A DNA stretch of 64,000 nt from an uncultured Gemmatimonadales bacterium (GTDB lineage Bacteria > Gemmatimonadota > Gemmatimonadetes > Gemmatimonadales > GWC2-71-9), in assembly GCA_963821385.1 (NCBI GenBank), contig CAWGDK010000005.1, positions 31,538 to 95,537 on the forward strand, given 5' to 3'. Position 1 is the first letter of the stretch, and each line of letters starts with the position of its first letter. This document shows positions 1,157-62,260 of this stretch, piece after piece. Both the position numbers and the translations under genes were made by a program. The notes beneath the pieces are model-generated. The model was not told where the DNA came from. It searched no databases and was given only the letters and a program-made list of their open reading frames with translations.

Positions 1157-3130
1157 ATGTGCGGCATCACGGGATGCCTTCAGCCCGACGGGATGCGCGC
1201 CGATGAGGCGCGCTGCGCCGTCATGGCCATGGCGGAGACGCTGCGGCACCGCGGCCCCGACGACAGTGGGGTATGGGTGGACCCTGACGCCGGGCTGGCG
1301 CTGGGGTTCCGTCGTCTATCGATCATCGATCTCACACCGACCGGACGGCAGCCGATGGAGTCAGCCTCCGGCCGGTTCGTGATCGTCTTCAACGGGGAGA
1401 TCTACAACTTTCACGAACTGCGCCGCGAGTTGGTGCGCCGGGGTATCCGTTTTCGCGGCCGTTCGGACACCGAGGTGCTGTTGGCCGTGCTCGAAACCTG
1501 GGGAGTGCCCGACGCGCTCCCACGGCTCAATGGTATGTTCGCCTTCGCGTTGTGGGATCGCGCGCAGCGCACGCTCCACCTCGCGCGCGATCGCGCCGGC
1601 GAAAAGCCACTGTATTACGGCTGGATGGGACGCACGCTCCTGTTCGGGTCCGAGCTGAAGGCACTCCGGGCGCACCCGTCGTTTCGGGCGGACATCGATC
1701 GCCACGCGTTGACGCAATACTTCCAGCGTGGCTACATCCCCGACCCCGCCAGCATCTATCTCGGCATCCAGAAACTGCCGGCCGGAACGGTCCTGAGCAT
1801 CCGGGGAGACGGGACCGGGCCGAGCGCGGTGCCGACCGCCTATTGGTCGATGCGCGAGGCGGCGGAAGCCGGTGTAGCCGATCCATTTCGCGGCGATGCA
1901 AGCGAAGCGGTCGAATCGTTGAACGGGTTGCTGCAGGACGCGGTGCAAATGCGCATGGAGTCGGACGTCCCACTCGGCGCGTTTCTTTCAGGTGGGATTG
2001 ATTCGTCGACCATCGTCGCCCTCATGCAGGCACAGAGCGTCACGCCGGTTCGCACATTCAGCATTGGTTTTGACGACAAGCTCCGCAACGAGGCAGAGTA
2101 TGCGGCGGCGGTCGCCCGACACCTGAGGACTGACCACACCGAGCTCTATGTCACTCCGGCCGAAGCGCTCGCGGTCATCCCTCACCTGCCCACCCTGTAC
2201 GACGAGCCGTTTGCGGATACCTCGCAGATACCGACGTATCTGGTCTCGAAGCTCGCCCGCCAACATGTCACGGTCAGTCTGTCGGGTGACGCCGGCGACG
2301 AGTTGTTCGGCGGCTACCGCCGGCATCGGCTGGGGCCCGCGATCTGGCGCGGCATCCGGTGGATTCCCCTGTGGCTCCGGCTGGCCGCTGCGGCCGCCAT
2401 GACGCCCGGGGCGGTGATGCCTGGGACGGTCCGTTCGGTCGTCAACCGGGCGACGCGCCGGTGGACCGGGAAGCGCACGTTGGGCGAGCGACTCGAGCAA
2501 ACCGCCGCGATGCTTCCCGCTCCCTCACCAGAAGCTTTGTACTCGTACATGATGTCCCACTGGAAGCATCCGGCGGCGCTGGTGCGTGACGGGCGCGAAG
2601 CATCTTCGGTCTCCAACGGATTGCCCCATCCCCGGCTGAACGGCAGTGCCGAACACATCATGATGCTGCTGGATGGGTTGGCCTACTTGCCGGGCGATAT
2701 CCTGGTGAAGGTGGATCGTGCCGCCATGGGGGTGAGCCTCGAGACCCGGATCCCGCTCCTGGATCATCGCCTCATCGAGTTCGCCTGGCGTCTGCCGTTG
2801 GAGTACAAGTTCCGCGACGGCGCCAGCAAGTGGCTGTTGCGGCAGGTGTTGTATCGCTATGTGCCGCGTTCGCTCGTGGATCGGCCCAAGACGGGATTCC
2901 ATCTCCCGATCGCGAACTGGCTCCGCGGTCCGTTACGGGAATGGGCGGAGGCACTGCTCGACGAGCACCGGTTACGGCGCGAGGGAATGCTCGATCCGGC
3001 TCTGGTCCGCCGCGTTTGGGGCGAACACCTGGCGGGATCCCGTCGGGACTCGCAGCTGTGGACCGTCCTCATGTTCCAGTCCTGGCACGAATCCGCGTCT
3101 CAGGTCGAACCAGCCGTCGCAGTCGCGTAG
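1157..3130 (+). CDS. asnB: asparagine synthetase (glutamine-hydrolysing), polysaccharide-locus type
   Basis: N-terminal MCGI (catalytic Cys2 of class-II amidotransferases), FNGEIYN, PP-loop SGGIDSS; 657 aa. Confidence 0.9.
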   Translation: MCGITGCLQPDGMRADEARCAVMAMAETLRHRGPDDSGVWVDPDAGLALGFRRLSIIDLTPTGRQPMESASGRFVIVFNGEIYNFHELRRELVRRGIRFRGRSDTEVLLAVLETWGVPDALPRLNGMFAFALWDRAQRTLHLARDRAGEKPLYYGWMGRTLLFGSELKALRAHPSFRADIDRHALTQYFQRGYIPDPASIYLGIQKLPAGTVLSIRGDGTGPSAVPTAYWSMREAAEAGVADPFRGDASEAVESLNGLLQDAVQMRMESDVPLGAFLSGGIDSSTIVALMQAQSVTPVRTFSIGFDDKLRNEAEYAAAVARHLRTDHTELYVTPAEALAVIPHLPTLYDEPFADTSQIPTYLVSKLARQHVTVSLSGDAGDELFGGYRRHRLGPAIWRGIRWIPLWLRLAAAAAMTPGAVMPGTVRSVVNRATRRWTGKRTLGERLEQTAAMLPAPSPEALYSYMMSHWKHPAALVRDGREASSVSNGLPHPRLNGSAEHIMMLLDGLAYLPGDILVKVDRAAMGVSLETRIPLLDHRLIEFAWRLPLEYKFRDGASKWLLRQVLYRYVPRSLVDRPKTGFHLPIANWLRGPLREWAEALLDEHRLRREGMLDPALVRRVWGEHLAGSRRDSQLWTVLMFQSWHESASQVEPAVAVA

Positions 3131-3355
3131 GCACGGCTGTTGCAGAGTTGCCTCACATGCCCCAGGATTGCGGCACTGCATTCCAGTAAGCCAATGGTCA
3201 GCAGCCCCTTATGAGACCGGTGGCGACTCCCTAACCGGACCGGCGCCGCGCCAAGTCACGTCTCATGATGTAGCGGAAGCGTATATTTCGTTGCCCTTTG
3301 CGATCATGTTGCGGCATCGCAACAATCGCCGCCACAACGCGTTCTCGGGACGGGA

Positions 3356-4882
3356 ATGAAGCGTAGCCTGACGCATCAGACGGTCGCCGGGATGCTGTGG
3401 ATGATCTACGGCAAAATGGCCTTCGCGATCCTGCAGTTGCTGATCCTGGGCGTACTCGCCCGGCTGTTGACCCCGGCCGACTTCGGCGTCGTTAGCGCCG
3501 CGGCTGTGGTGATCGGGTTTTCCGCCATCGTCTCGCAGCTCGGGCTTGGACCGGCATTGGTCCAGCGTTCGGACCTCGAGCCGCGGCACATCGAGACGGC
3601 GTTCAGCGCTTCGGTTGTGCTGGGCCTGTTCCTGGGAGCTGTGATCTATTTCGGCGCTCCGTTCGCCGCCGAATTCCTCCGCATGCCGAACGTCACCCCG
3701 GTGTTGCGTGTCCTGGCATGGGTGTTCCCCTTGCAAGGAATGCAGACCGTGGCGTCCTCGCTGATGAGTCGCGAACTCCGGTTCCGGTGGCTCGCCAACC
3801 TCGATGTGATTACCTACGGCATCGGGTACGGCATTGTGGGCATCGCCGGCGCGCTGCTCGGGTGGGGCGTTTGGGCCCTGGTCGCCGCACAGATGTCCCA
3901 GACCTTCCTCAAAACGGCCGTGCTCCTCACGCAACATCCGCCGCGATTTCGTCAGTCCACCGACCTGCGAGCGTTCCGCGAGCTGATGTATTTCGGCGGT
4001 GGGTTCACCGCCGCGCGCATCGCCAACTACGTCGCCCTGAATGGCGACAACATGACGGTCGGACGATTCCTGGGTCCCACTGCGCTGGGGTACTACGGCC
4101 GGGCCTATTCCCTGATGTCGGCACCCGCCTACGGCTTCGGCACCGTACTCGATGCCGTGCTCTTCCCCGCCATGGCGAAGGTCCAAGACGATCCGCAACG
4201 CCTCTCCGCGGCCTTCCGCCGAGGCGTGGCGCTGATCGCCCTCCTGGTGCTGATGCCGAGCCTGGTGATCATCCTGCTCGCGCCGGAAGTGATTCACGTC
4301 GCGCTCGGCGCCCGGTGGACCGCCGTGGTCGCCCCGTTCCAGATTCTCGCCATTGGCATGCTGTTCCGCACCAGTTACAAGATGAGCGATTCGATTACCC
4401 GATCGACTGGCGCGGTGTACCGCCGTGCCTGGCGCCAGGCGCTCTACGCCGTACTCGTGGTGGGTGGCGCGTGGATCGGTCAGCACTGGGGCATCGCTGG
4501 TGTGGCCTGGGGGACGTTGGCGGCGCTGACGATCAACTTCCTCATGATGGCGCAACTCGGGCTGGACGTAGGCCACCTGTCCTGGGGGGCCTTCTGGCGC
4601 GCTCACGAACCGGCCGTCTATCTCACGCTCGGCTGCGCCCCGGTGATCTGGGGCTCGACGACGCTGATGCGTCATTGGGGTCTGCCGCCGGTGGCGATTG
4701 TGATCGCCGTTTCGCTGCTCGCGGCGGGCACCGGCCTGCTGCTCGTGCTTCGCTCGCCCGGGGTCTTCCTCGGACCGGACGGGCAGTGGGTGCTCGAGAC
4801 GATGCGGAGTTTCATCCGTAAGCTCCGTCCCGCTCGGGTGCCCGTCGCGGCCGCGCAAGGACCGGCGCCGGTCGTCGAATGA
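3356..4882 (+). CDS. polysaccharide flippase, MOP/Wzx family
   Basis: 508 aa, hydrophobic throughout with about 12-14 helix-length segments. Sits in a glycan locus. ATGA overlap with the next gene. Confidence 0.75.
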   Translation: MKRSLTHQTVAGMLWMIYGKMAFAILQLLILGVLARLLTPADFGVVSAAAVVIGFSAIVSQLGLGPALVQRSDLEPRHIETAFSASVVLGLFLGAVIYFGAPFAAEFLRMPNVTPVLRVLAWVFPLQGMQTVASSLMSRELRFRWLANLDVITYGIGYGIVGIAGALLGWGVWALVAAQMSQTFLKTAVLLTQHPPRFRQSTDLRAFRELMYFGGGFTAARIANYVALNGDNMTVGRFLGPTALGYYGRAYSLMSAPAYGFGTVLDAVLFPAMAKVQDDPQRLSAAFRRGVALIALLVLMPSLVIILLAPEVIHVALGARWTAVVAPFQILAIGMLFRTSYKMSDSITRSTGAVYRRAWRQALYAVLVVGGAWIGQHWGIAGVAWGTLAALTINFLMMAQLGLDVGHLSWGAFWRAHEPAVYLTLGCAPVIWGSTTLMRHWGLPPVAIVIAVSLLAAGTGLLLVLRSPGVFLGPDGQWVLETMRSFIRKLRPARVPVAAAQGPAPVVE

Positions 4883-6441
4883 CCGCACGACCCGCCGACG
4901 AGTCGACCGCCGCGCTGCCCCAGTCGCGCCCGGCGGGGGCGCCCGGCGGCCTGCCGCGGCTGCGGATCCTGGACGAGCTGTTTGCCCGCCTCGATACCGA
5001 AGCGATCCGATATTGCCATTGGAAGAGCAATGAGCATCTGGGGCCGGCCCTAACGGGTGTGACCGATGTCGACGCGCTGTTCGATCGGCGCGGCGCGCAA
5101 CGTCTCGCCCATCTCCTGACCAGCGACACCCACTTCAAACGGTTCGTGGTGAAGGCCGGGCGCGGCTATCCAGGCATCGAAGATTATGTGGGGTTTGATC
5201 CTGGGACCGGAAGGCTCACCCATCTGCACGTCCACTACCAGCTGACGCTGGGCGAGAAGTTCCTGAAGGGCCATCGCCTGCCATGGGAAGAGGTGATGCT
5301 GGCCACGCGAGTTCGCGATCCCGACTACAACGTCTGGGTGACCGATCCGCACCTCGAGCTCCTGATCCTGATTGCCCGGGCGGCGATCAAGTTGCGCTGG
5401 CGCGATCACGCACTCGCCCTGATGGGACACGAGTACGTCCGGGGAGGGATGCTGCGGGAAATGCGGTGGCTGGCGGCTCGCGTGCGCTCTGACCGCCTGA
5501 TCGAAGTCGCGACTCCGCTTGTCGGGTCGGCGGCGGCGCACGCCGCGGCCGCGATGATTTCCACGCGTGCCCCATCGATCCGGCAGCTGCGGTCATTTCA
5601 CCGCCTCGCCGATCCGCCGCTGAGCGCCTACCGCATGTACAGCGCGACCGGCGCCGCTCGTCGCATGCTGTTCCGGGAATGGACGTGGATTTGGTGGCGC
5701 GTTTCCCACTGGATCACGCGGGCCCCCACGCGGTCGACACGGACTCCGCCGCACGGCGGCGTGGCGATCGCCTTCGTCGGCCCCGACGGAGCCGGAAAAT
5801 CGACGCTCACCGAGGCGATCGCCAAGTGGCTCGCAAGCGACATGGCGGTCGTTTCCACTTATGGTGGCAGCGGCAAGGGGACGGCGTCGCAGCCGCGGCG
5901 CTGGTTGCAGCGATTCAGCGCCCTGACCCGGCCGGCCGCCACGATCCCGTCTCCAGCGGGGCCCCCGGCGCGACGTGAACCAACCGGCCTGCGGTTGCTG
6001 GGCCGGTTGCTGTGGGTGCTTTCCCTCGCCCGCGAGCGCCGGCGGTGGGCGCAGGGCGTCCGGCAGGCCCGGAGCCTCGGCATGATCGTGCTCTCCGACC
6101 GTCTGCCGCAAACCCAGTTCGCCGGTCTCAACGACGGACCCCGGCTCGGGCACTGGGTCGACGCGCCCTCCTGGTTGCGCCGAACCATTGCACGGCGGGA
6201 GCAACGGGCATTCCGGCTGGCTGAGCTTGTCCCGCCCGACCTCGTGATCCGGCTGCATGTCCCGGTGGACATCGCCGCGCGCCGCAAGCCCGACACCCCG
6301 CTCGACCAGCTCCAACGCAAAGTCGAGATCGTCGCCAACCTGAGGTTTCCCCCCACGACCCGTGTGGCCGAGATCAACGCCGCCCAACCGATCGAGCGCG
6401 TCCTAGCCGAGGTGAAGCAGGCGGTTTGGGAGTGCCTCTGA
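4879..6441 (+). CDS. two-domain protein: N-terminal nucleotidyltransferase-like region plus C-terminal thymidylate-kinase-fold P-loop domain
   Basis: N-terminal half has TGVTDVDALF (DxD-like) and a helical region. C-terminal half has GPDGAGKST and SDRLPQTQF. Full-length paralog of the truncated ORF at 2..1003. Confidence 0.6.
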   Translation: MTARPADESTAALPQSRPAGAPGGLPRLRILDELFARLDTEAIRYCHWKSNEHLGPALTGVTDVDALFDRRGAQRLAHLLTSDTHFKRFVVKAGRGYPGIEDYVGFDPGTGRLTHLHVHYQLTLGEKFLKGHRLPWEEVMLATRVRDPDYNVWVTDPHLELLILIARAAIKLRWRDHALALMGHEYVRGGMLREMRWLAARVRSDRLIEVATPLVGSAAAHAAAAMISTRAPSIRQLRSFHRLADPPLSAYRMYSATGAARRMLFREWTWIWWRVSHWITRAPTRSTRTPPHGGVAIAFVGPDGAGKSTLTEAIAKWLASDMAVVSTYGGSGKGTASQPRRWLQRFSALTRPAATIPSPAGPPARREPTGLRLLGRLLWVLSLARERRRWAQGVRQARSLGMIVLSDRLPQTQFAGLNDGPRLGHWVDAPSWLRRTIARREQRAFRLAELVPPDLVIRLHVPVDIAARRKPDTPLDQLQRKVEIVANLRFPPTTRVAEINAAQPIERVLAEVKQAVWECL

Positions 6442-22525: not shown

Positions 22526-23749
22526 ATGCCGACCCGTCCGCCGCTGCTGCCACGCTCGATCGCCCGGCTCGCCCTCGGGGCCGCGCTCGGATTCATTCTC
22601 CTGACCACGCTGGCACCCTTCCCCGGCGCACGCGCGCCGGACTTCGTCGGGTGTCTGATTTGCGGCACCCGAGGCTCGGCGGACGCGCTCGTCAATCTCC
22701 TCCTGTACATACCCCTTGGCGCCGCCCTGATGATAAACGGACGGGCGGGCGGACGGACGGTCGCCCTGGCCGGAATGTTGTCGGCGGGTATCGAATTCCT
22801 TCAGATCTTCATTCCGGGCCGTGATCCCAGCCTGGGAGACGTATTCTTCAATACCGGCGGCGCCGCGGTGGGCCAGGTCACCGTGCACTTCCTGGCGCGA
22901 TGGGCGACTCCGGACGCGCGCACCGCCGCACGCCTTTCGGTCGCCGCCGCCTTGACGGCGCTCGGTGTGTTCGGTCTGACGGGATGGCTGCTGCGGCCAG
23001 CGCTCCCCGTATCCGCGTTTCGCGCCTGGTACACGGCCGATCGACCAGATCTCGAGTTTTACCACGGCCGTGTGCTGAGCACGACCCTGGGGGCGGTTCC
23101 GTTCAGCACCGCCGACGTTCCGAACCCCGGTGAAGTGCGCCACCTGCTCCTCACCGGGGCCCCCTTGCATATCCTGGCAGTCGCCGGCCCGCGCGTCCGC
23201 GCGCTCGGCCCGTTGTTTGTGATCGAAAACCGATGGGGAGAAGAGATCTTTCTCCTCGGCCCTGATCGCGACGACCTCGTGCTGCGGTATCGCACGCGAG
23301 CCGCCGCGCTGCGACTCGATCAGCCGGACCTGCGGCTGCGTGACGCCTTTGCCGGAGTCGCTGCCGGCGACACCCTGCGAATCGAGGTGAGGCGGGAGCA
23401 CGGTGCGTATTGCCTCGCGGTCAACCGAGCAGGTGCGTGCGGACTCGGGTTCACGCTGGGCAGCGGCTGGGCCGTGCTGTTGTACCCGAGACACTTTCCG
23501 CCGTGGCTGCAGCAGCTGTTGAGCATCGGGTGGGTGGCCGGCATCGCCTTCCCGGTGGGATTCTGGGCGCGGCGGCGTTGGGAAAGCGGGCTCGCCTGGG
23601 TCGTGCTCGGGAGCGGGCTGGCTCTCGTCCCACTGTTCACAGCCCTGGTTCCGACGCCGGCCAACCAGTGGGTGGGCGCGGGCGCCGGGGCGCTGTCCGG
23701 AGTGGCGCTCGGGTTGCTGGTCGGTCGCCGGAATACGCAGACGCGCTAG
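22526..23749 (+). CDS. VanZ-like family membrane protein with extended C-terminal region
   Basis: N-terminal VanZ-like pattern (LLTTLAPFP..NLLLYIPLGAAL..IEFLQIFIPGRDPSLGDV) and terminal TM helices. ATG 22526, or TTG 22514. Confidence 0.6.
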   Translation: MPTRPPLLPRSIARLALGAALGFILLTTLAPFPGARAPDFVGCLICGTRGSADALVNLLLYIPLGAALMINGRAGGRTVALAGMLSAGIEFLQIFIPGRDPSLGDVFFNTGGAAVGQVTVHFLARWATPDARTAARLSVAAALTALGVFGLTGWLLRPALPVSAFRAWYTADRPDLEFYHGRVLSTTLGAVPFSTADVPNPGEVRHLLLTGAPLHILAVAGPRVRALGPLFVIENRWGEEIFLLGPDRDDLVLRYRTRAAALRLDQPDLRLRDAFAGVAAGDTLRIEVRREHGAYCLAVNRAGACGLGFTLGSGWAVLLYPRHFPPWLQQLLSIGWVAGIAFPVGFWARRRWESGLAWVVLGSGLALVPLFTALVPTPANQWVGAGAGALSGVALGLLVGRRNTQTR

Positions 23750-25188
23750 CGCGCCCGACTCGTCAGGAGAAACGTGTCGAACGCGGGGCCCGTTCGCGGC
23801 GGCGTCCGGGTCACCCGTCCCTGCGGGACGGGCGGAGCGATGCCGGTCAGCGGAACACGGATCGGTGTACCCCGGTACACCCCACTCACCACCGGGGGAT
23901 CAAACAACGCCTGCACGTTGCGTATCTCGTAGCGATCGCCGGCCCGCAAGACCGTGCCGACATCCACCGCCACAGCGGCGCGCCCCTCCCAGTTGTACAC
24001 GACGATGTGCGCGCGGCCGGCTTCGTATTTATTGGCGCGCACAAACACCCGTGTGAGCGCCGGTCGCTCCGATTCTACACGATCCCGGCCACCGAGGCCG
24101 CTGGCGTGTTGCCACCCATTCCAGTCGTACGCCCGGTCCTCGAATCGCCACGCTCGCGCAGTGGCATCCCGCCCCCAGTGGTTTCCCGACCACTGGTAGT
24201 GCTGGTCGAGCCTCGCCCCGCCTACCTTTACGACGTCGCGACTTCCGATAAACGTGTTTCCCTCAACGATCGCGTGCATCCAGGGCTCGACCATCTCGAG
24301 CCCGATCTTGCCTCCGGCGGCATAGTTGTCGCGCAACACCAGGTCGCGGTTGTTTTGGGGAGCGTACTTGCCAACCCGCAGATTGATCCCGTCCCGACCG
24401 GAGAAGTAGAGCATGTTGCCGATGCCGGCCATCCCCTCGGTGGGGACCGGCGCGTTGAAGATCAGGTTCTCTCGCGCGGCGGCCACGGTGGAAATCGTTC
24501 CGTTGTTGAAGGCCACGTTTCCTTCGACCCGGATATTGCGAATGGTCGGATTGTTGCGACTGGCGTAGACCTGAATGCCGCGGGCGAGGTTGTTGAAGAA
24601 CACATTGTCCGCGATCACCTTCGTGCCAGTTTCATTGTGCACGTACACGCCGTGATCGAGGTTTTCATGCGTCCCGTTGTTGTAAATGATGCACCCGTAC
24701 AACTCGGCATCGACCGCCGGAGTCCAGAAACTGACTCCCTGCGTCCCTGCGTCGTGAATGATCAGATTGATGAACCGGCCGTGAGCGGTGTTGGCTTGCA
24801 GCCCGTACGTCTCCGGGGTCGATTGCATGATCTCGAATCCCCAGAACGTCAGGTAGGAACCCTCCGCACGCAGGGTCCCGTCGATCGTGGCCCGTTCGCC
24901 CGGCCACTGCCGAAACACGATGGCCCGGCCCGGTAATCCCGCGAGCGCCGTCCGGAACGCGCCGCGATAGGTCCCGCCCCGCAGCCACACCGTATCACCG
25001 GGCTGCAAACGCCCCGCCGCGCCGGACAGGGCGGTCTCCAGCGTCCACGGATGTTCCGCCGAGCCCGTGCCGCCGGCGGACGCCGTCGGCGCGACGTAGT
25101 GGCCGCCATGCGCCGGGATGGCCGGGACGGTGCCCGCCGGTGAAGGCCGCGCAATCACCGCCGTGGCTGCCAGGACGGCAACCACCAT
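23746..25188 (-). CDS. secreted right-handed parallel beta-helix protein (pectate-lyase-fold), paralog 1
   Basis: Colinear with 25205..26722 (PGDTVWLRGGTYRGAF/AGDTVWIRGGTYPGSF, PGERATIDG, repeated NN/HD rungs). Start taken at ATG 25188 (MVVAVLAATAVIA signal), just after the upstream stop; the longest ORF reaches 25305. Confidence 0.7.
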   Translation of the reverse strand: MVVAVLAATAVIARPSPAGTVPAIPAHGGHYVAPTASAGGTGSAEHPWTLETALSGAAGRLQPGDTVWLRGGTYRGAFRTALAGLPGRAIVFRQWPGERATIDGTLRAEGSYLTFWGFEIMQSTPETYGLQANTAHGRFINLIIHDAGTQGVSFWTPAVDAELYGCIIYNNGTHENLDHGVYVHNETGTKVIADNVFFNNLARGIQVYASRNNPTIRNIRVEGNVAFNNGTISTVAAARENLIFNAPVPTEGMAGIGNMLYFSGRDGINLRVGKYAPQNNRDLVLRDNYAAGGKIGLEMVEPWMHAIVEGNTFIGSRDVVKVGGARLDQHYQWSGNHWGRDATARAWRFEDRAYDWNGWQHASGLGGRDRVESERPALTRVFVRANKYEAGRAHIVVYNWEGRAAVAVDVGTVLRAGDRYEIRNVQALFDPPVVSGVYRGTPIRVPLTGIAPPVPQGRVTRTPPRTGPAFDTFLLTSRAR

Positions 25189-25204
25189 CGGCCACGCCGG
25201 CGTG

Positions 25205-26722
25205 CTACGGAGCCGCACTCGTGAGCAGAAAGACATCGAAATCCGGACCGGTCGTGGGCGGCAGCCGCTGCATTGAGCGCCCGATCGTCGGCGGCGGGGC
25301 CACACCGTTCATGGGGATCGCGATGGTGCCACCCGCATAGGTCCCCGACACGACGGGGGCATCGTACACTCGCTGGACGTTGCGGACTTCGTAGTGATGC
25401 CCCGGGGTCACGATGCTCGAGACATCGACGTTCACCGGGTTGTCATGGCCGAAATTGTAGACCACGATGAAGGCTCGTCCCGCCTCGTACTGGTTGGGCC
25501 GCAGGAACACCCGCGTCGCCGTCGGTGCCCCGCTGACCACAGAGTCGGTCGCCCCCAGACCGGTGGCCGCTTTCCAGGCGGCGAACGAATAGCCGAGGCC
25601 ATCCTGCTCCCATGCGTTCGCGGATGAATCGCGGTGATAGGTGTTCCCCGACCAGGTATAGGTGTTGACCAGAGGCCCACCCGTATGCACCACGTCGGTC
25701 GAACCGATAAAGACGTTGTTCATCACCGTGGCCTGCGCCCACTGATACTGCATTTCGAGCCCGACCGTCCCGCCCACGGCGAAATTGTTCTCGATGTCGA
25801 TACCCTTGTTGAGCAGCGCACTGTCGGACACGTCGTAGTTGCCAAGCCGGAAATGGATACCGTCTTCGCCGGGCGAGAAGTACAGCAGGTTGTCTCTTGC
25901 CACCATGCCGGTAATCACGGTCTGCGCGCTCATCAAGAGATTCACCTCGCTGGAGCCCGTGGAGATGGTGCCATTGTTGAACGAGATGTTGCCTGCGACC
26001 TCGAAGTTTTGGATGGGACTTGTACCGCCTTCATACACCTGGATGCCGCGAGCGAAATTGTTGAAGAAAACGTTGTCCGTGATGTATTTGGTGCCGGCAG
26101 TCGAATTGTGTGCGTAGACACCGTGATCGAGGTTGTCGTGGAAGCCGTTGTTGTAGACGATGCTGCCGTACAGCTCGACGCCATTGCCGGAACCGGTCGC
26201 CATGCTCACACCCGAGGTCCCGGCGTCGTGCAGCACCAGATTGATAAACTTGCCGTTCAACGTGTTCGCCTCGAGCGTCCGGTCCACCACCTGGATCGGA
26301 TGGGACTGCATGATCTCGAACCCCACGAACCACAGGTTCGAGCCGGTCGCGGCCAGGGAGCCGTCGATGGTCGCTCGCTCTCCCGGATACTGACGGAACT
26401 GAATCGGCAGACCGGCTTGACCGTTGAGCGACGTGCGGAAACTCCCCGGGTACGTGCCGCCCCGAATCCAGACGGTATCGCCCGCCTGCAACTGGTGGAC
26501 GTGTCCACCCGCCAGGGCCGTGGCCAGGTCCCAGGGCGCGTCGGTGGCCCCCGAGCCGGACGTCAGCCCGTACGGCGGGGGATACACGTAGTAGCCCGCA
26601 TGCGTCCCAGGGGGAGGCGGAGGAGGCGGGGGCGGGGGCGGCGTCCCGCCGTCGGTCTTGCAGCCAGCCACCAACAGGGCGCCAACGCACAGCAAGAGCC
26701 CCATTGGGGCCCGATAGGGCAT
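25205..26722 (-). CDS. beta-helix lipoprotein with poly-proline linker, paralog 2
   Basis: MPYRAPMGLLLCVGALLVAGC lipobox, P12 linker, then a beta-helix core with repeated rungs (IVYNNGFHDNLDHGVY, FFNNFARGIQVY, ISFNNGT). The ORF track start GTG 26731 is also possible. Confidence 0.75.
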   Translation of the reverse strand: MPYRAPMGLLLCVGALLVAGCKTDGGTPPPPPPPPPPPGTHAGYYVYPPPYGLTSGSGATDAPWDLATALAGGHVHQLQAGDTVWIRGGTYPGSFRTSLNGQAGLPIQFRQYPGERATIDGSLAATGSNLWFVGFEIMQSHPIQVVDRTLEANTLNGKFINLVLHDAGTSGVSMATGSGNGVELYGSIVYNNGFHDNLDHGVYAHNSTAGTKYITDNVFFNNFARGIQVYEGGTSPIQNFEVAGNISFNNGTISTGSSEVNLLMSAQTVITGMVARDNLLYFSPGEDGIHFRLGNYDVSDSALLNKGIDIENNFAVGGTVGLEMQYQWAQATVMNNVFIGSTDVVHTGGPLVNTYTWSGNTYHRDSSANAWEQDGLGYSFAAWKAATGLGATDSVVSGAPTATRVFLRPNQYEAGRAFIVVYNFGHDNPVNVDVSSIVTPGHHYEVRNVQRVYDAPVVSGTYAGGTIAIPMNGVAPPPTIGRSMQRLPPTTGPDFDVFLLTSAAP

Positions 26723-26935
26723 CACGATCACAACCCCCGATTCGAAGGACTACAGGACTGGAAGTCGGGTCACCGGCTCGCGGGGGCGAGCGCCCCGGCC
26801 CAGGAGGCCGGGACAACCCATCCGTCGCGTGAAGCAAGAACTTAGCCGGGCCGCCCCCACCGGCCCCAGGTCCTGAGGCCTTCCCCAATCGGACCAAACT
26901 GTAGACCCGATGCAACAGGGAGTGAGCGCCCTCAG

Positions 26936-28454
26936 CTATCGCTCGTAGGCGCCCAGGTCGGCTCCCTGCCCCCGCGCGCGGCAGAGGCCGTCGATATCGA
27001 ACGGCGCCGCGTACGTCGCATCGGCCTGATCGATAGCGGGGCTTCCGGCCTTCAGATGCAGGTCGTTGGCGTAGGCCTGATGCGTGGTCGACGGGGTGGA
27101 GGCTGTCGGGTTGACCAGGAACGGATCGGCCACGACGTTGCCGACGATGGTGGCATTGGTGTTCCAGTGACTGGTCCCGTCGTTGCCGTTGTTCCAGAAC
27201 ATGTTGTGGATCTCGACATTGCTGCTGCCGCCACTGGATCCGCCGGTATTGATCCCCACCCCGTCGTTCACGTTGCCATTATTGACGACGATGTTGTTCG
27301 CGAACACCCAATCGTGCGTGCTTTCGGCGATGTCCATGCCGGACCGGCCGTTGCCGACGACCGTATTGTTGACGACGAGGATGTGATTCGCACTGAACCG
27401 CGCCGAGAGACCTTTGGCGCGATTGTGCTCCAGCACGTTGTTCGCCACGACCCCTCGGGTCCCGTCGTGATAGTAGATCCCGTGCGATGTGTTTTCCTGA
27501 CTGGGGTCGTTGAACCCGCCGTTGTCGTGGATGTAGTTGCCCAGAATCCAGATGTCGTCCCCCCCGGCCGCGATCCCGGCATGCCAGCCGCCGTGAAACA
27601 CTTCCGAGTTCGATACTTCGATATGGTGGCTGGCCCCCGGATCCATCTGGACCAGGTTTTCTCCCTGCCGGGAGGACGCCCCCCATGGACCACAGCTCGG
27701 GCCCTCGACCACGACACTCGATAGCCGGAAATACGATCCGGACAGTCGAATCTGCCCGTGCAACACGGCGCGTTCCCCGGCATACCCCTGTACCGTGATC
27801 GGCGCCGCGGGCGCTCCCGCCCGTTTGAATGTCGACGCCGTACAAAAGGCGCCGTACGTCCCAGCCCGCAGATACGCGATCTGCCCCGGTTGGAGCGCAT
27901 CGAAGGCCTTCTGCAGTGTCTTCCATGGCGCCTGAAGCGTACCCGGATTGGCATCCGACCCCGCGGTGGCGGAGACGTAAAACGCCGTCCCCGTGGACAA
28001 CGGCATCCGTGGGTAGATCGCACTCGGCCACGGATTGGGGCACCCGGTGGCGGGCGGCGGCGGCGGCGGCGGGGGGGGGCGGCGGGGGCGGCGGTGTCGA
28101 CCCCGTCACCTGCACCGCCGCGGACGCGGATTGATTCTCACAGGTCGCGGTGATTGTGACCGTGCCTCCGGCCATGCCATAGACCAGACCACTGGCATCG
28201 ACGGTGGCCACATTGGGATCGCTGCTGGCCCACGTCACGACGCGGTTCTCCAGCGGCGCGCCGCTCGAGTCCTGGGGGGTGGCGTGCAGCTGCACGCTTT
28301 CGCCCGCCGTCACGGTCGCATCGGCCGGTGTCACGGCGACCGTCGCGACCGGCGGACCCGCAGGCCCCGCCGTGCGATCGAGCACACAGGCAGGCATCAA
28401 CAGACACAAGGCAAGCAGGGTCACAACAACGGTGTGTTGGCGATGCTGAAGCAT
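26936..28454 (-). pseudogene. Big_2 - polyPro - beta-helix lipoprotein (paralog 3), reading frame broken by +1 nt in a C9 run
   Basis: ORF from 28454 gives signal LALCLLMPAC plus a Big_2 domain plus STPPPPPPPP, then nonsense. The beta-helix frame (ORF 26936..28006) is open upstream through PPPPPPPPPATGCPNPW to the same run (28071-28079). The span is 1519 nt = 3n+1. SD GGGAGG lies 7 nt upstream of ATG 28454. Confidence 0.7.
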
Positions 28455-28564
28455 AAACGACCTCCCGCGTCGGCGTGAGCGGCGGTGTGGTGGATGGCCG
28501 ACTTACGGCGGAAGGAAGGCGGACCACGCGGAGCGACCGGCCGCCTCGTCCGACCGAAGTCGAA

Positions 28565-28654
28565 TCGCTGGCGGCCCGGCTGGCCTGGCGGAGACATCCG
28601 CGGTAGCCCCGTGACTCTGCGTCACCGCCTTTCGACGGCTTTGCTCTGAGCAGC
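28565..28654 (-). promoter_or_regulatory. GEMM-I class cyclic-dinucleotide riboswitch aptamer (copy A)
   Basis: Minus strand reads CGCUG-CUCAGA-GCAAA-GCCGUC-GAAA-GGCGGU-GACGCAGAG-...hairpin...-AGCCGGGCCGCC-AGCG. It matches the GCAAA / GNRA hairpin / GACGCAAAGC / AGCCGGGCUGCC blocks of c-di-GMP-I. Covariation is seen against copies B and C. Confidence 0.75.
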
Positions 28655-28673
28655 GTCCTGCTGTGGCAGCTGC

Positions 28674-28712
28674 TCCCACGGCGCGATGCCGCTGCGGCAT
28701 CGCGCCCGTGGG
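28674..28712 (-). terminator. strong GC hairpin immediately after the Big_2-metallophosphoesterase stop
   Basis: CCCACGGGCGCGAUGCC-GCAGC-GGCAUCGCGCCGUGGG on the minus strand (about 16 bp with one bulge). It starts 16 nt after the stop at 28728. No U-tract. Confidence 0.45.
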
Positions 28713-28727
28713 GCAGATTCGTCGTGC

Positions 28728-30146
28728 CTAGTGGCACGTTCCGCTGCCGGTGTCCGTGAACGACTGGCCGGCAACGGGGACAAACTCCCAGGCATAGGTG
28801 CCCGGCCCGAGCGTGAACTTCAGGACCCCAAACGTGGTCCCGTTGAACACCTCACTGTTGGCCAAGGGCGTTCCCTGCCCGTAGTGGCTCTCCCCGCCCG
28901 TTCCGGCAATGAATTCGCGGATCCCGTTGACCGGGTCCGCGTCGCCGCTCGGCGTCTGGAGAGCGAACCGCTCGTAGTTATGCTCGTGACCAGCGAGAAC
29001 GATTTCGGCGTGGAAGTCGTACAGCGCCTGCCACAACGGTTGGGCCGAGCTCAGGCTGCCGTGGTGGCTGCCGCTCGAGAAGCGGGGTTTGTGCCAGTAC
29101 GCCAGCGTGCAGGTTTTGGACGACGCGGCGAGGTCTGCGCGCAGCCACGTCTCCTGCGCCGATCCAGCGCTCATCGACGTTTCGCTATTCAGCGAAACGA
29201 TGTGCCAGTCCCCTAGGTCGTAGCTGTAGTAGCCGCGCCCTGATGGTCCAGCGAGATCGCCGAAGTATCCGTAGTAGCCGGCCGCGCCACTGGTGTTGTA
29301 GTCGTGATTTCCCGGGGCCGGCCGCGTGCGCGTCTTGTGTCGTCCCCAGGTGGGATCGTAGCACTGGGAGAACTGCGAAGCGGTACCGCTGGAGTACACG
29401 TTGTCGCCCAGCGTGTAGACTGTTCCCGGAATGCCGTCGAGCAGCGCCGCGGTGGCCTCATCGTTGTCGTTGCCACAGTCGGAAATGTCTCCGGCGCCCG
29501 CGAAGACGATGCCGCCCGCCGTGCTCATCACAGTCACGCTCGCCGTGTCGGCCAGGGTGCCGCCGGCCTCGAGCGCGATGACGCGGTACGTTCCGGCAGC
29601 GGATCCGGCGGTGTAGAGACCCGTGGCCGTGATCGACCCGCCCGTCGCGTCATAGCTCACCACCGCTGCCACGGAATCACCGTTACTCATCCGGCCGTAC
29701 ACGGCGAACTGTTGCGTGCCGGCGATTGAGACTGTCACGGCTGCCGGCACGAGCACCACCTGCGCGAGAACGGCGGGTCCACTCACCGTGACCGTGACGT
29801 CCGCGGTATCGGCCAGCGTCCCACCCACCTGCGTAGCGATCACTTGATAGGTGCCGGCGACTCCGCCCGCGATGTAGCGGCCATCGGCGTCGATGGTCCC
29901 ACCAGTGGCGCTCCACGCGACGGTCACGGGCTGGGTATCGCCTTGCGCCGTGCGCGCGGCGGCCTCGAACTGCAACGATTGGCCGGCGGGGACATTCGTG
30001 GTTTCGGGTGTGATGACGATTTCCTCGACATCGGTAGGACCGCTGGGTGGTCTGGAGCGCTCGCAGGCGGTCGAGATGGCGATCAGGACGACGAGCGGGT
30101 GCGCGAGCCATGTGCGCCCTCGCGTCCCAGTGCGTAGATGGTGCAT
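28728..30146 (-). CDS. lipoprotein: three Big_2-like modules plus C-terminal metallophosphoesterase (short paralog of the giants)
   Basis: Lipobox LIAISTAC. C-terminal motifs GAGDISDC, LGDNVYSSG, GNHDY, SLNSE, GHEHNYE and a C-terminal SGTCH as in the giants. SD AAGGAGG lies 6 nt upstream of ATG 30146. Confidence 0.85.
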   Translation of the reverse strand: MHHLRTGTRGRTWLAHPLVVLIAISTACERSRPPSGPTDVEEIVITPETTNVPAGQSLQFEAAARTAQGDTQPVTVAWSATGGTIDADGRYIAGGVAGTYQVIATQVGGTLADTADVTVTVSGPAVLAQVVLVPAAVTVSIAGTQQFAVYGRMSNGDSVAAVVSYDATGGSITATGLYTAGSAAGTYRVIALEAGGTLADTASVTVMSTAGGIVFAGAGDISDCGNDNDEATAALLDGIPGTVYTLGDNVYSSGTASQFSQCYDPTWGRHKTRTRPAPGNHDYNTSGAAGYYGYFGDLAGPSGRGYYSYDLGDWHIVSLNSETSMSAGSAQETWLRADLAASSKTCTLAYWHKPRFSSGSHHGSLSSAQPLWQALYDFHAEIVLAGHEHNYERFALQTPSGDADPVNGIREFIAGTGGESHYGQGTPLANSEVFNGTTFGVLKFTLGPGTYAWEFVPVAGQSFTDTGSGTCH

Positions 30147-30165
30147 TGGGCACCTCCTTCACGGG

Positions 30166-30217
30166 ACAACAACGCACGGGCCGCCAACGTCGACCCGTGT
30201 CGAAGCGCTGGCGGCCC
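30166..30217 (-). terminator. putative riboswitch-B expression platform (terminator stem using the aptamer 3' strand)
   Basis: Minus strand GGGCCGCC..UCGAC-ACGG-GUCGA..GGCGGCCC followed by GUGCGUUGUUGU. Confidence 0.45.
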
Positions 30218-30297
30218 GGCCGACCTGGCAGGATGGCTCCCGCGGTAGTCCCGTGGCTCTGCGTCACCGCCTTTCGGCGGCTTTGCTCTGAGCAGCG
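30206..30297 (-). promoter_or_regulatory. GEMM-I class cyclic-dinucleotide riboswitch aptamer (copy B, proximal of tandem pair)
   Basis: Same block structure as copy A. The P2 hairpin is GCCGCC-GAAA-GGCGGU. The P3 helices differ from copy A by compensatory changes. Confidence 0.75.
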
Positions 30298-30339
30298 ATC
30301 GAAGCGATGCGAGGCTGAGTTTCGACTGGACGAGGGCTT

Positions 30340-30388
30340 ACAACGAAAGGGCCGCCCCCTTCGACCAAGGTCGAATCGCTGGCGGCCC
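30340..30388 (-). terminator. putative riboswitch-C expression platform (intrinsic terminator using the aptamer 3' strand)
   Basis: Minus strand GGGCCGCC-AGCGAUUCGACCUUGGUCGAAGGG-GGCGGCCC followed by UUUCGUUGU. Confidence 0.5.
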
Positions 30389-30469
30389 GGCGGGCATGGC
30401 GGAGGAGGATTCCGCGGTAGCCCCGTGACTCTGCGTCACCGTCTTTCGACGGCTATGCTCTGAGCAGCG
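30377..30469 (-). promoter_or_regulatory. GEMM-I class cyclic-dinucleotide riboswitch aptamer (copy C, distal of tandem pair)
   Basis: Same block structure. The P2 hairpin is GCCGUC-GAAA-GACGGU (U-A where copy A has U.G and copy B has C-G). Confidence 0.75.
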
Positions 30470-30595
30470 ACATCAGCATCGTGTGGCCCGCGTACACTCG
30501 GCGGCGAACGGAGGTTCCGCGAAATACAGAAGTCGTCGTGGTGCCGCAGAATGGGTGACATGAGTCACGCCAAGCCCGGTAGCATGCCGGACGCG

Positions 30596-31771
30596 CTATG
30601 GCTGAGACACGATCCGATAGAGGTCGCCGCCCAGCGTCGTGATGTACAACGCGCCACGCGCGTCCTCGCCGAAGGAGCTAAGTCCTCCGCTCACCGCTAA
30701 GGCCGGCCAATCAAGTGGATCGGTGGCCTGTCCGCCGCTGAAACGGAATGAGCGCACCCAGCCGCTGCAATAGTCCCCATACAGGTAACGTCCCAGCAGA
30801 TCCGGCACCGTGCTGTCGCGCGACACATATCCGCCCGTCACCGAGCACCCTTCTCCGTGGCTGTATTCCAGGACCGGGAGGGCGAGACCCGGCACGGGGC
30901 AGGACGAAGCCGCGTAGCAGTGCAATCCCTCCATCTCATTCCAACCGTAGTTCCCACCACTGGGCGCGCCGGCCGGCAGCACATCCACTTCCTCCCAGGC
31001 GTTCTGGCCCACATCACCCAGGTAGAAATCCCCCGTCTGTCGGTCGAACGAGAAGCGCCATGGGTTCCGCACGCCGTAGACCCAGATCTCCCCGCGCGCA
31101 CTCGTATCGCCGACAAACGGATTGTTGGACGGAATGGCGTATGGTACCCCGGCATCCACATCCAATCGCAGGATCTTGCCGAGTAGAGCCTTCCGATTCT
31201 GCCCGTTCCCATCCGGGTCCCCGCCTCCGCCACCATCGCCCAAGCCGGCGTACAGCTTGTCATCCGGTCCGAACAACAACAGCCCGCCGTTGTGATTGGA
31301 TTGGGATCGGTGGCCCACGGTGAGCACGGTGTCCCCGGAAGTGGAGTCGGCGATATCCGGGTTCGACGACACGAGATATCGTACGATCCGAAGGTCACCC
31401 GATGGAGTGGTGAAATAGACGTAGAACTGGCCGTTCCCGGCGTAGTCGGGATGAAACGCCAGGCTCAACAACCCGCGTTCGCCCCCCGCGGAAATGTGAC
31501 CGGAAATGTTCAAGAACGGCGTGACCAGCAGCGTATCGTGGTGCAAGACACGGATCCGACCACCCTGCTCCACCACAAACAGGCGCGCTGTGTCCCCCGG
31601 CGGCGTCGTGACGAAAATGGGCGAGCTGAGGCTGCCGGTGACCAAGTGGAGCGCCGGCGTTCCCGGTCCCGGGCCAGGGCCAGGCCCAGGGCCCGGACCA
31701 GGACCCGGGCCCGCGGCCGTCCGCTCGCACGCCAACAAGGCCAGCGCCCACGCCACCCACCGTGCCGTCAT
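30596..31771 (-). CDS. PQQ-dependent soluble sugar (glucose/sorbosone) dehydrogenase, lipoprotein with (PG)8 linker
   Basis: HNGGLLLFGPDDKLY, GDGGGGGDP, LGKILRLD and GVRNPWRFSFD beta-propeller motifs. Confidence 0.85.
   Translation of the reverse strand: MTARWVAWALALLACERTAAGPGPGPGPGPGPGPGPGTPALHLVTGSLSSPIFVTTPPGDTARLFVVEQGGRIRVLHHDTLLVTPFLNISGHISAGGERGLLSLAFHPDYAGNGQFYVYFTTPSGDLRIVRYLVSSNPDIADSTSGDTVLTVGHRSQSNHNGGLLLFGPDDKLYAGLGDGGGGGDPDGNGQNRKALLGKILRLDVDAGVPYAIPSNNPFVGDTSARGEIWVYGVRNPWRFSFDRQTGDFYLGDVGQNAWEEVDVLPAGAPSGGNYGWNEMEGLHCYAASSCPVPGLALPVLEYSHGEGCSVTGGYVSRDSTVPDLLGRYLYGDYCSGWVRSFRFSGGQATDPLDWPALAVSGGLSSFGEDARGALYITTLGGDLYRIVSQP
31662..31712 (-). repeat. imperfect GGNCCN hexanucleotide repeat encoding (Pro-Gly)8
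   Basis: Translates as GPGPGPGPGPGPGPGPG directly after the signal peptide of the dehydrogenase. Confidence 0.8.
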
Positions 31772-60595: not shown

Positions 60596-62260
60596 TCAGT
60601 CGTTTGCCTCGAGCATCGGCAGGCGGAGCCCCTCGCGCCGCGCCGTCGCGATCGCCTCGGGATAGCCGGCGTCTGCATGACGGGCAACACCGATCCCCGG
60701 ATCATTGGTCAGCACCCGGGCGAGACGACGGCCGGCCTCCGGTGTGCCGTCGGCGACGATGACTTGTCCGGCGTGCAGGGAGTTTCCGATCCCAACCCCG
60801 CCGCCGTGGTGGAAGGACACCCAGGACGCCCCCGACGCCGTGTTGAGCAGCGCGTTGAGAATCGCCCAATCGGCGATGGCGTCGGATCCATCGCGCATGC
60901 CCTCCGTTTCCCGGAAGGGCGATGCGACGCTGCCGGTATCGAGATGATCGCGGCCGATCACGATCGGCGCCGTGAGCTCCCCGCGCGCGACCAGGTCGTT
61001 CAAGGCGACCCCGAAGCGCGCCCGTTCGCCCTGCCCCAGCCAGCAGATGCGGGCTGGCAGACCCTGAAACACCACGCGCTCCCGTGCCAACCGAATCCAG
61101 CGGGACAGATGCTCATCTTCGGGAAATAGGTCCAGCACGAGACGATCAGTCCGCTCCAGATCCTTGGGGTCACCCGAGAGCGCGACCCAGCGGAACGGGC
61201 CTTTCCCCTCGCAGAAGAGCGGTCGGATGTATTCCGGCACGAACCCCGGGATTTCGAACGCCTCTTTCACGCCCGCATCGGCGGCGACGGTGCGGATGTT
61301 GTTCCCGTAGTCGAACGTGATCGCACCCGCCCGTTGCAGCGCCAGCATAGCGCGCACATGCGTGGCGATGCTCTCCTCAGCGCGCCGGGTATAGGCGCCT
61401 GGGTCGGTGCCGCGCAGGGCCGTCGCGTCCGCGAGGGACAATCCGGAGGGGACGTAGCCATTCAACGTATCGTGGGCCGAGGTCTGATCGGTGACGACAT
61501 CCGGGACGACACCGCGGCGCACTAATTCCGGCAGGACCTCGGCACAATTCCCGATGACGCCCACCGAGAGCGCGGTGCCCGTCCGGCGGGCGGCATCGCA
61601 CCAGCGCAGCGCTTCACCCAGGTCGGCGGTCGCCTGATCCAAATAGCGAGTCGCCACCCGGCGTTCCACCCGCTCGCGGTCGACGTCCACGACCAGGCAG
61701 ACGCCATCCTGCATGGTTGCCGCCAGTGGCTGGGCACCGCCCATTCCACCCAACCCGCCCGTCACGACCAGCCGCCCACGCAGCGATCCACCAAAATGAC
61801 GCCGCGCCACGGCGCCAAACGTTTCGTAGGTGCCCTGGAGGATGCCTTGCGTCCCGATATAGATCCACGAACCCGCCGTCATCTGCCCGTACATGATCAA
61901 GCCGCGCCGTTCCAGGTCCCGGAACACGTCCCACGTCGCCCAGCGTCCGACCAGATTCGCGTTGGCAATCAGCACACGGGGCGCATCGGCATGCGTCGTG
62001 AACACACCCACCGGCTTGCCGGACTGCACCAGCAGCGTCTCGTCGTTCCCCAAGTTGCGCAGCGCGCGCACGATGGCGTCGTACGCATCCCAGTTTCGCG
62101 CGGCGCGTCCCGTGCCACCGTAGACCACGAGATCCTGGGGACGTTCCGCCACCTCCGGATCGAGGTTGTTCATCAGCATCCGCAGGGCGGCTTCCTGGAT
62201 CCAGCCACGACACGAGCGCTCCGTACCGCGAGGAGCCCGGACGACGCGGGGACCGCTCAC
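60596..62260 (-). CDS. hutU: urocanate hydratase
   Basis: 554 aa. [16 protein letters not shown] site and typical urocanase blocks ([23 protein letters not shown]). Confidence 0.95.

Follow-up and report, generated by a model that had tools for sequence, protein, structure and literature searches.

Tandem GEMM-I aptamers with separate expression platforms in the leader of a metallophosphoesterase gene from a Gemmatimonadales bacterium

The stretch of DNA analysed here (64,000 nucleotides (nt) of contig CAWGDK010000005.1, assembly GCA_963821385.1, hereafter the window) originates from an uncultured soil Gemmatimonadales bacterium with 67% G+C and carries on its minus strand a cluster of genes for secreted proteins together with three RNA aptamers of the GEMM-I class (c-di-GMP-I, Rfam family RF01051). 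The leading gene of the cluster encodes a probable lipoprotein with N-terminal immunoglobulin-like (Ig-like) domains and a calcineurin-like metallophosphoesterase domain (hereafter the phosphatase). Its 449-nt leader contains two aptamers in series, the distal C and the proximal B, and a third aptamer (A) precedes the next gene (Table 1). The enzymatic domain matches Pfam PF00149 (E 4.2e-09) and is related to purple acid phosphatases (PDB 6gja, E 1.8e-09), the Big_2 match lies just under its cut-off (20.8 vs 22.8 bits), and a search of NCBIfam with this protein gave no match. Among its 7922 homologues, those with a name belong to Gemmatimonadales or Gemmatimonadaceae. An earlier sequence-only reading of the window had assigned the gene as a Big_2-metallophosphoesterase starting at ATG 30146 behind the Shine-Dalgarno (SD) sequence AAGGAGG, which agrees with our annotation, and relatives begin at the same ATGCAC.

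Table 1. Positions of the aptamers, platforms, putative control sites and genes in the window (bits and E-values of aptamers from Rfam, followed by the score of the lineage model R1)
Feature	Position	Strand	Properties
CRP/FNR-like palindrome GTGA-N6-TCAC	30568..30555	minus	upstream of the promoter-like motif; candidate transcription-factor site
Promoter-like motif GGAAC-N18-GTACG	30518..30491	minus	ends 22 nt before aptamer C
Aptamer C (distal)	30469..30378 (Rfam); 30377..30469 (with P1)	minus	51.9 bits, E 3e-07; R1 105.6 bits
Platform of C	30340..30388; hairpin 30388..30349, tail 30348..30340	minus	tail UUUCGUUGU; fold -27.1 kcal/mol
Spacer, terminator of C to aptamer B	30298..30339 (42 nt)	minus	neither GGAAC-N18-GTACG nor sigma-70 match
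Aptamer B (proximal)	30297..30207 (Rfam); 30206..30297 (with P1)	minus	55.0 bits, E 5.1e-08; R1 100.5 bits
Platform of B	30166..30219; hairpin 30219..30177, tail 30176..30166	minus	tail UGCGUUGUUGU; fold -38.8 kcal/mol
Shine-Dalgarno sequence AAGGAGG and start codon ATG	30159..30153; 30146..30144	minus	read from the sequence
Phosphatase gene	28728..30146	minus	472 aa; probable lipoprotein; Ig-like (Big_2-like) and calcineurin-like metallophosphoesterase domains
GC-rich hairpin	28675..28712	minus	nearly perfect, 17 bp; -33.7 kcal/mol; no U tail
Aptamer A	28655..28567 (Rfam); 28655..28566 (with P1)	minus	56.9 bits, E 1.8e-08; R1 110 bits
Platform hairpin of A	28579..28537	minus	same overlap with the aptamer; no U-rich tail (2 U in 10 nt, not enriched)
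Gene after aptamer A	26936..28454	minus	Big_2 (Pfam E 6.7e-15), polyproline linker, right-handed beta-helix enzyme (Pfam Beta_helix)
Two secreted beta-helix paralogs ending the cluster	25205..26731; 23746..25305 (span 23746..26731)	minus	Pfam Beta_helix

A scan of the whole window against Rfam 15 with the curated gathering thresholds returned three matches, all to RF01051, all on the minus strand and all covering model positions 1-87 of 87. Their scores of 52-57 bits exceed the gathering score of 35 for this family, and chance can be excluded for the three aptamers because the Rfam E-values already cover both strands and all 4227 families. Two complete GEMM-I aptamers in series had been proposed from the sequence with a spacing of 79 nt, and class, number and spacing were all reproduced, the distance by a lineage-specific covariance model that includes helix P1 (model R1). 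The same model detected no fourth or degenerate aptamer in the window (next best match 13.6 bits, E 0.7), and motif searches with the shared 5' end (GCTGCTCAGAGCA) and 3' end (GCCGGGCCGCCAGCG) yielded only A, B and C there.

The aptamer structure is 99% paired over 26 pairs in an alignment of 48 distinct lineage units, with compensatory changes in five pairs, and pairing falls to 22-59% when the partners are slid. The covariation score of 0.170 was reached by none of 500 shuffles (shuffle mean 0.121), so that helices P1, P2 and P3 are backed by both base-pair conservation and covariation. The window aptamers share with Vc2 of Vibrio cholerae, the structural reference of the class, the three-helix junction, the GAAA tetraloop on P2 (invariant in the lineage), the GACGCA core with A47, the residue C92 and the closing helix P1. 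GACGCA-G (A47) and the GCC before the 3' strand of P1 (C92) are present in A, B and C and form invariant columns in the 48 units; according to published work on Vc2, A47 intercalates and C92 is Watson-Crick paired to one guanine of the ligand. The window aptamers depart from Vc2 in having A where Vc2 has G20, in a tetraloop-receptor region with CUAC...CAGG or CAUG in place of the consensus, and in the putative terminator hairpin of its own that follows each aptamer.

The three units align across the aptamer and the start of the platform, and the 5' arm of the hairpin that follows each aptamer, GGGCCGCC(AGCG), takes in the base of P3, the position equivalent to C92 and P1's 3' half. The hairpins of both C and B draw GGGCCGCCAGCG from the 3' end of their aptamer. 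In thermodynamic folding, the ligand-free hairpin state is more stable than the P1-enforced state by 8.3 (C), 12.5 (B) and 12.2 (A) kcal/mol, and aptamer and hairpin are predicted to be mutually exclusive in each unit. The B hairpin, which was also listed by a terminator scan, has a z-score of -3.8, and none of 200 shuffles was equally stable. Both C and B are followed by U-enriched tails (6 U in 10 nt for C, P 0.002 from composition; 6 U in 11 nt for B, P 0.004) on a strand that contains 16% T and in which only 0.19% of the 10-nt windows have six or more T. These tails end at 30340 and 30166, near which premature 3' ends had been suggested earlier, and the proposal that each aptamer has a hairpin platform of its own is upheld.

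Constrained folding indicated that the B terminator still forms when aptamer C is held folded, so that the two modules are predicted to be thermodynamically independent. The same result led us to discard cross-talk through the identical arms, in which the free 3' arm of C would pair with B. In each of the four modelled combinations of bound and unbound aptamers, the SD sequence stays free of pairing, which, together with the exclusive hairpins, points to transcriptional control with ON logic. Translational control through the CU-rich P3 loop of C (AAUCCUCCUCC), which is complementary to the SD sequence, was also considered and rejected, as loop-SD complementarity in 12 leaders summed to 42 compared with a shuffled-loop mean of 41.5, and 503 of 1000 shuffles reached 42. 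The same aptamer-overlapping hairpin is present in nearly all of 57 related units, many of which have U5-U8 tracts (e.g., GCCGCCAGCGCAACAACGCUGGCGGCCCUUUUUUU), and this shared design is the strongest argument that the weaker-looking hairpins of the window would act as terminators as well.

The sequence GGAAC-N18-GTACG upstream of aptamer C is a candidate promoter for the entire leader. When the regions upstream of the first aptamer were aligned for 10 loci, GGAAC and GxGTA proved invariant, and the motif occurs upstream of the sole or distal aptamer in 12 other loci (L001, L002, L005, L007, L009, L010, L013, L031, L058, L059, L064 and L067; related loci are numbered with the prefix L) and never between tandem aptamers. 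We take it to resemble a promoter recognized by extracytoplasmic function (ECF) sigma factors, with GGAAC at -35. A promoter scan found no sigma-70-type promoter in 26000..31500. Because the motif lies only upstream of C and is missing from the spacer, a single transcript would run through C and then B. A second match of the motif in the window, at 61888, lies inside the urocanate hydratase gene (hutU) and was dismissed as a chance match. In L009, the motif ends in the variant GTACT, and in L004 it stands ahead of an aptamer-less phosphatase paralog.

A CRP/FNR-like palindrome, GTGA-N6-TCAC, is located further upstream in the window and occurs upstream of GGAAC in eight phosphatase leaders, with distances from its centre to GGAAC of 33, 43 or 52-55 nt. 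This spacing in steps of about one helical turn suggests a helix-face-dependent protein site and thus a candidate activator site; the pattern as such occurs 82 times, counted on both strands, in the 566 kb of sequence analysed. No ECF sigma factor or CRP-like protein was found with Pfam among ten small neighbouring open reading frames (ORFs).

We propose that the leader consists of two independent GEMM-I modules, which would be transcribed in turn from one promoter just upstream of C. Without ligand, the hairpin would form and transcription would stop near 30340 (at C) or near 30166 (at B); with ligand, the aptamer would keep the shared 3' strand and the polymerase would read through. Full-length mRNA would then require ligand at both modules, which could reduce leakage and steepen the dose response (pseudo-cooperative ON/ON). 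We consider it likely that both modules are functional ON switches that act in series by transcription attenuation.

Several observations weigh against this interpretation. By itself, the C hairpin does not significantly exceed shuffles in stability (z -1.24), the U tails in the window (UUUCGUUGU and UGCGUUGUUGU) are short and interrupted, and we know of no study of intrinsic termination in Gemmatimonadota. The putative promoter was assigned from conservation only. A at position 20 leaves the choice of ligand between cyclic di-GMP (c-di-GMP) and 3',3'-cyclic GMP-AMP (cGAMP). Furthermore, most orthologous leaders carry one aptamer, and decayed second copies exist in L010, L053 and L076, so relaxed selection could act on one of the two copies in the window.

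The tandem layout is real and already well known, and the architecture as such is not new. The precedent in Bacillus adhesin leaders named in the sequence-only reading holds, as the triple-tandem c-di-GMP-I riboswitch Bc3-5 of Bacillus thuringiensis has the same architecture, with ON switches whose terminators draw on C92, on P1's 3' strand and on a portion of P3 (Zhou et al. 2016, PMC4759541). As in Bc3-5, several complete and highly similar GEMM-I aptamers lie in one 5' untranslated region, each has its own putative terminator overlapping C92, P1 and P3, and a secreted or surface protein is controlled. Unlike Bc3-5, the window element is a doublet with A and not G at position 20 and weak U tails in a Gemmatimonadales bacterium of 67% G+C, it is known from sequence, and its product is a phosphatase on an Ig-like stalk instead of an adhesin. 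Control by Bc3-5 is described as more stringent and more digital with more copies (PMC4759541), and by analogy with this architecture a sharper, more digital response may be expected from the window doublet.

A survey of tandem riboswitches counted 347 doublets and 12 triplets of c-di-GMP-I, the highest number of any riboswitch class (Sherlock et al. 2022, PMC9481103). With two complete aptamers that each have their own platform, the window element fits the class 'multiple expression platforms, pseudo-cooperative' of that survey, which does not discuss Gemmatimonadota; a later phylogenetic survey gives Thermodesulfobacteriota and Deinococcota as enriched phyla and does not mention Gemmatimonadota either. 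Our literature search returned no paper on GEMM-I riboswitches in Gemmatimonadetes. The earlier statement that three aptamers of one class within 1.9 kb are an unusually high density does not stand for this lineage in view of these published counts and of L007, with three aptamers in 4.6 kb, and L057 and L058, with triplets within about 420 nt.

The locus adds a well-supported tandem cyclic-dinucleotide riboswitch in Gemmatimonadales. Its added value lies in the signature A at position 20 (A20), in the way modules are gained, lost or left to decay at homologous genes, and in the conserved promoter architecture. It ties the signal to secreted Ig-stalk enzymes, which probably act on extracellular matrix or extracellular phosphate esters.

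Position 20 bears on the identity of this signal. In the numbering of the 5' half of Vc2, G20 corresponds to model position 11, which immediately precedes the G-C pair of GCAAA, with G21-C46, C22-G45 and A47 falling as expected. This nucleotide is A in aptamers A, B and C, which therefore lack the G20 of c-di-GMP-I and have the signature A of GEMM-Ib. A20 was found in every aptamer retrieved via protein homology, a sample not biased towards A, and its column is invariant in the 48-unit alignment; in the metagenome loci, A at this position was already prescribed by the search pattern. According to published work, one guanine of c-di-GMP is read by G20, GEMM-Ib riboswitches that bind cGAMP carry A there, Vc2 G20A accepts either ligand and some of the natural A variants show bispecificity. 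The nucleotide at position 20 is in direct contact with the ligand's G or A base, and A is common in c-di-GMP-I variants that respond to c-AMP-GMP (PMC9481103). Since C92 and A47 are retained, one guanine of the ligand should still be read, and A20 means that c-di-GMP is not to be assumed; the predicted ligand is a cyclic dinucleotide with at least one G, which could be c-di-GMP, 3',3'-cGAMP or both.

The alternative that survives best keeps the tandem ON architecture and changes the ligand to 3',3'-cGAMP, or to cGAMP and c-di-GMP, so that the aptamers would be of GEMM-Ib type and belong to a Gemmatimonadales cGAMP regulon. We regard this as possible, if doubtful, and give cGAMP as a physiological ligand a fairly low probability. 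The occurrence of A20 in all three window aptamers and throughout the protein-homology sample is consistent with it, as is the association of A20 with cGAMP-responsive and bispecific variants. Geobacter sulfurreducens, too, has tandem GEMM-Ib (cGAMP) riboswitches, for example upstream of omcAHG, and the Geobacter transcripts terminate at one riboswitch after the other (Hallberg et al. 2019, PMC6456294). The window element shares with these the tandem GEMM-I fold and the control of extracellular proteins; by contrast, cGAMP selectivity and the producing enzyme GacA have been demonstrated in Geobacter, and the phylum and the content of the regulon differ. However, A20 alone is not selective, as Vc2 G20A still binds c-di-GMP, and the unbiased sample represents one paralogous family of leaders. 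A motif search of the 64-kb window found no credible GGDEF, EAL or HD-GYP gene, only chance matches to short motifs, and neither a GGDEF gene nor a candidate cGAMP synthase was found in the window or in the 502 kb of related loci. Likewise, our literature search returned no paper linking Gemmatimonadetes with Hypr GGDEF enzymes or cGAMP.

The A20 aptamers are reasonable candidates for cGAMP-responsive riboswitches outside Geobacter. We speculate, with some reserve, that the A20 aptamers of this Gemmatimonadales lineage may answer to 3',3'-cGAMP, alone or with c-di-GMP, and define a regulon of secreted Ig-stalk enzymes. If so, this regulon would comprise the phosphatase, beta-helix enzymes and large Big_2-repeat proteins, the fast gain and loss of single, double and triple modules would tune the sharpness of the response for each gene, and cGAMP riboswitch signalling, so far mainly known from Geobacter, would extend to an unrelated and poorly studied soil phylum.

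One GEMM-I aptamer precedes the homologous phosphatase gene in seven loci from species-representative genomes (L001, L002, L003, L005, L009, L013 and L031) as well as in the syntenic metagenome loci L053 and L077-L079. L053, whose phosphatase is 75% identical at the protein level, has the gene order RarA, LEA_2, HflX, GSDH, phosphatase, beta-helix. A single aptamer is the commonest state at this gene, and the tandem state is not conserved. Decayed units, which retain the ends 5' CGCTG and 3' CCGGGC(C/T)G..AGCG and have lost the core, were found in three loci. In L010, an intact distal aptamer is followed by a proximal unit (3860-3939, 36.8 bits) with both ends and an intact terminator; in L053, the decayed unit (5752-5813, 23.3 bits) follows an A-type aptamer; in L076, the aptamer ahead of the first of two phosphatase paralogs has an internal deletion (about 1340-1400). 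These remnants, compared at the sequence level, show gain and loss of tandem modules at homologous genes.

The pair in the window might be a recent duplication in decay, of which only one module works while the other is idle or a constitutive attenuator. The prevalence of single aptamers and the decayed copies are compatible with this scenario, which we nevertheless consider unlikely. Both window copies score like functional-looking singles and keep all conserved core nucleotides, the GAAA tetraloop, P1 and the complementary terminator arm, and at 86% identity to each other the duplication is not very recent and no structure has been lost. Aptamer C matches the sole aptamer of the syntenic locus L053 at 95% identity, and the platform of B is nearest to the gene-proximal platforms of single-aptamer loci; together with the divergence between B and C, this argues for an old duplication or reshuffling of modules and against an assembly artefact.

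Intact doublets also recur elsewhere. In L076, two aptamers (2989-3078 and 3154-3242), 75 nt apart, precede the second phosphatase paralog, which lies right after the first. This doublet has its own GGAAC-N17-GTAAC motif. The GCATA aptamer type is proximal in L076 and distal in the window, a placement that suggests independent duplications or exchange between units. Soil metagenome contigs were scanned with an exact pattern for two units 120-150 nt apart, which yielded 19 loci, all with Rfam-confirmed intact multi-aptamer sets with gaps of 66-81 nt that are mostly filled by the terminator; two of these sets are triplets, and in L063 the contig ends within the second copy. The products of the genes behind these tandems are lipoproteins of 935-1253 aa in which many Big_2 repeats are combined with enzyme domains at the C-terminus; Pfam gave no match for the C-terminal domains of two of these proteins. 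The comparative set of single, double, triple and decayed modules could serve the study of riboswitch copy-number evolution.

Termination at the hairpins, as assumed for the two ON switches in series, could in principle be replaced by another mode of action, such as masking of translation initiation, exposure of a Rho site or an effect on RNA stability. The weak U tails of C and B and the lack of one after aptamer A fit such modes, and so does the hairpin behind the phosphatase stop codon, whose missing U tail indicates that the organism may use U-less hairpins. We nevertheless find this explanation improbable: the SD sequence is free in all modelled states, the P3 loop complements it at chance level only, the distal module lies 190 nt away from it and can hardly control translation, and relatives have textbook U5-U8 tracts right after the same hairpin. 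Aptamer A itself may use a different read-out. Its platform differs from the B/C type, as do the A-type platforms in L002, L003 and L007.

That B has a promoter of its own in the spacer, with C merely attenuating upstream read-through or releasing a short RNA, is very improbable, for while the promoters of the phylum are uncharacterised and a start within 30298..30339 may escape recognition, the 42 nt contain neither the GGAAC motif nor a sigma-70 match, the 12 other loci have the motif only ahead of the first aptamer, and tandem spacers elsewhere consist mostly of terminator.

Downstream of the phosphatase gene, the GC-rich hairpin lies directly 3' of the stop codon, between the gene and aptamer A, and might serve as a terminator, a stabiliser or a processing site. 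Aptamer A keeps its place behind the phosphatase gene in L002, L051 and L053. In L077-L079 (72% protein identity), only 38 nt and no aptamer separate the phosphatase gene from an 835-aa Big_2 and beta-helix gene; hence copy A is not universal, and both genes can form one riboswitch-controlled operon.

In a relative with 95% protein identity, the short-read contigs are interrupted within aptamer B, and the Logan short-read contigs L051, L052, L054, L074 and L075 all start or end inside an aptamer copy. Near-identical aptamer repeats appear to break short-read assemblies, and counts of tandems in metagenomes will then be too low.

The gene after aptamer A is split near 28050..28100 by a one-base frame change in its C-rich polyproline tract, as determined by three-frame translation, into a Big_2 and polyproline ORF and a beta-helix ORF. 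Its ortholog in L053 (5845..7341) is a single 498-aa ORF, and the frame change could reflect a homopolymer assembly error, a slippage-prone tract or the state of a pseudogene. The cluster ends with two more secreted beta-helix paralogs, and the next gene downstream of them is convergent. The protein encoded at 25205..26731 shares 43% identity with the catalytic domain of the L068 protein that lies behind a tandem.

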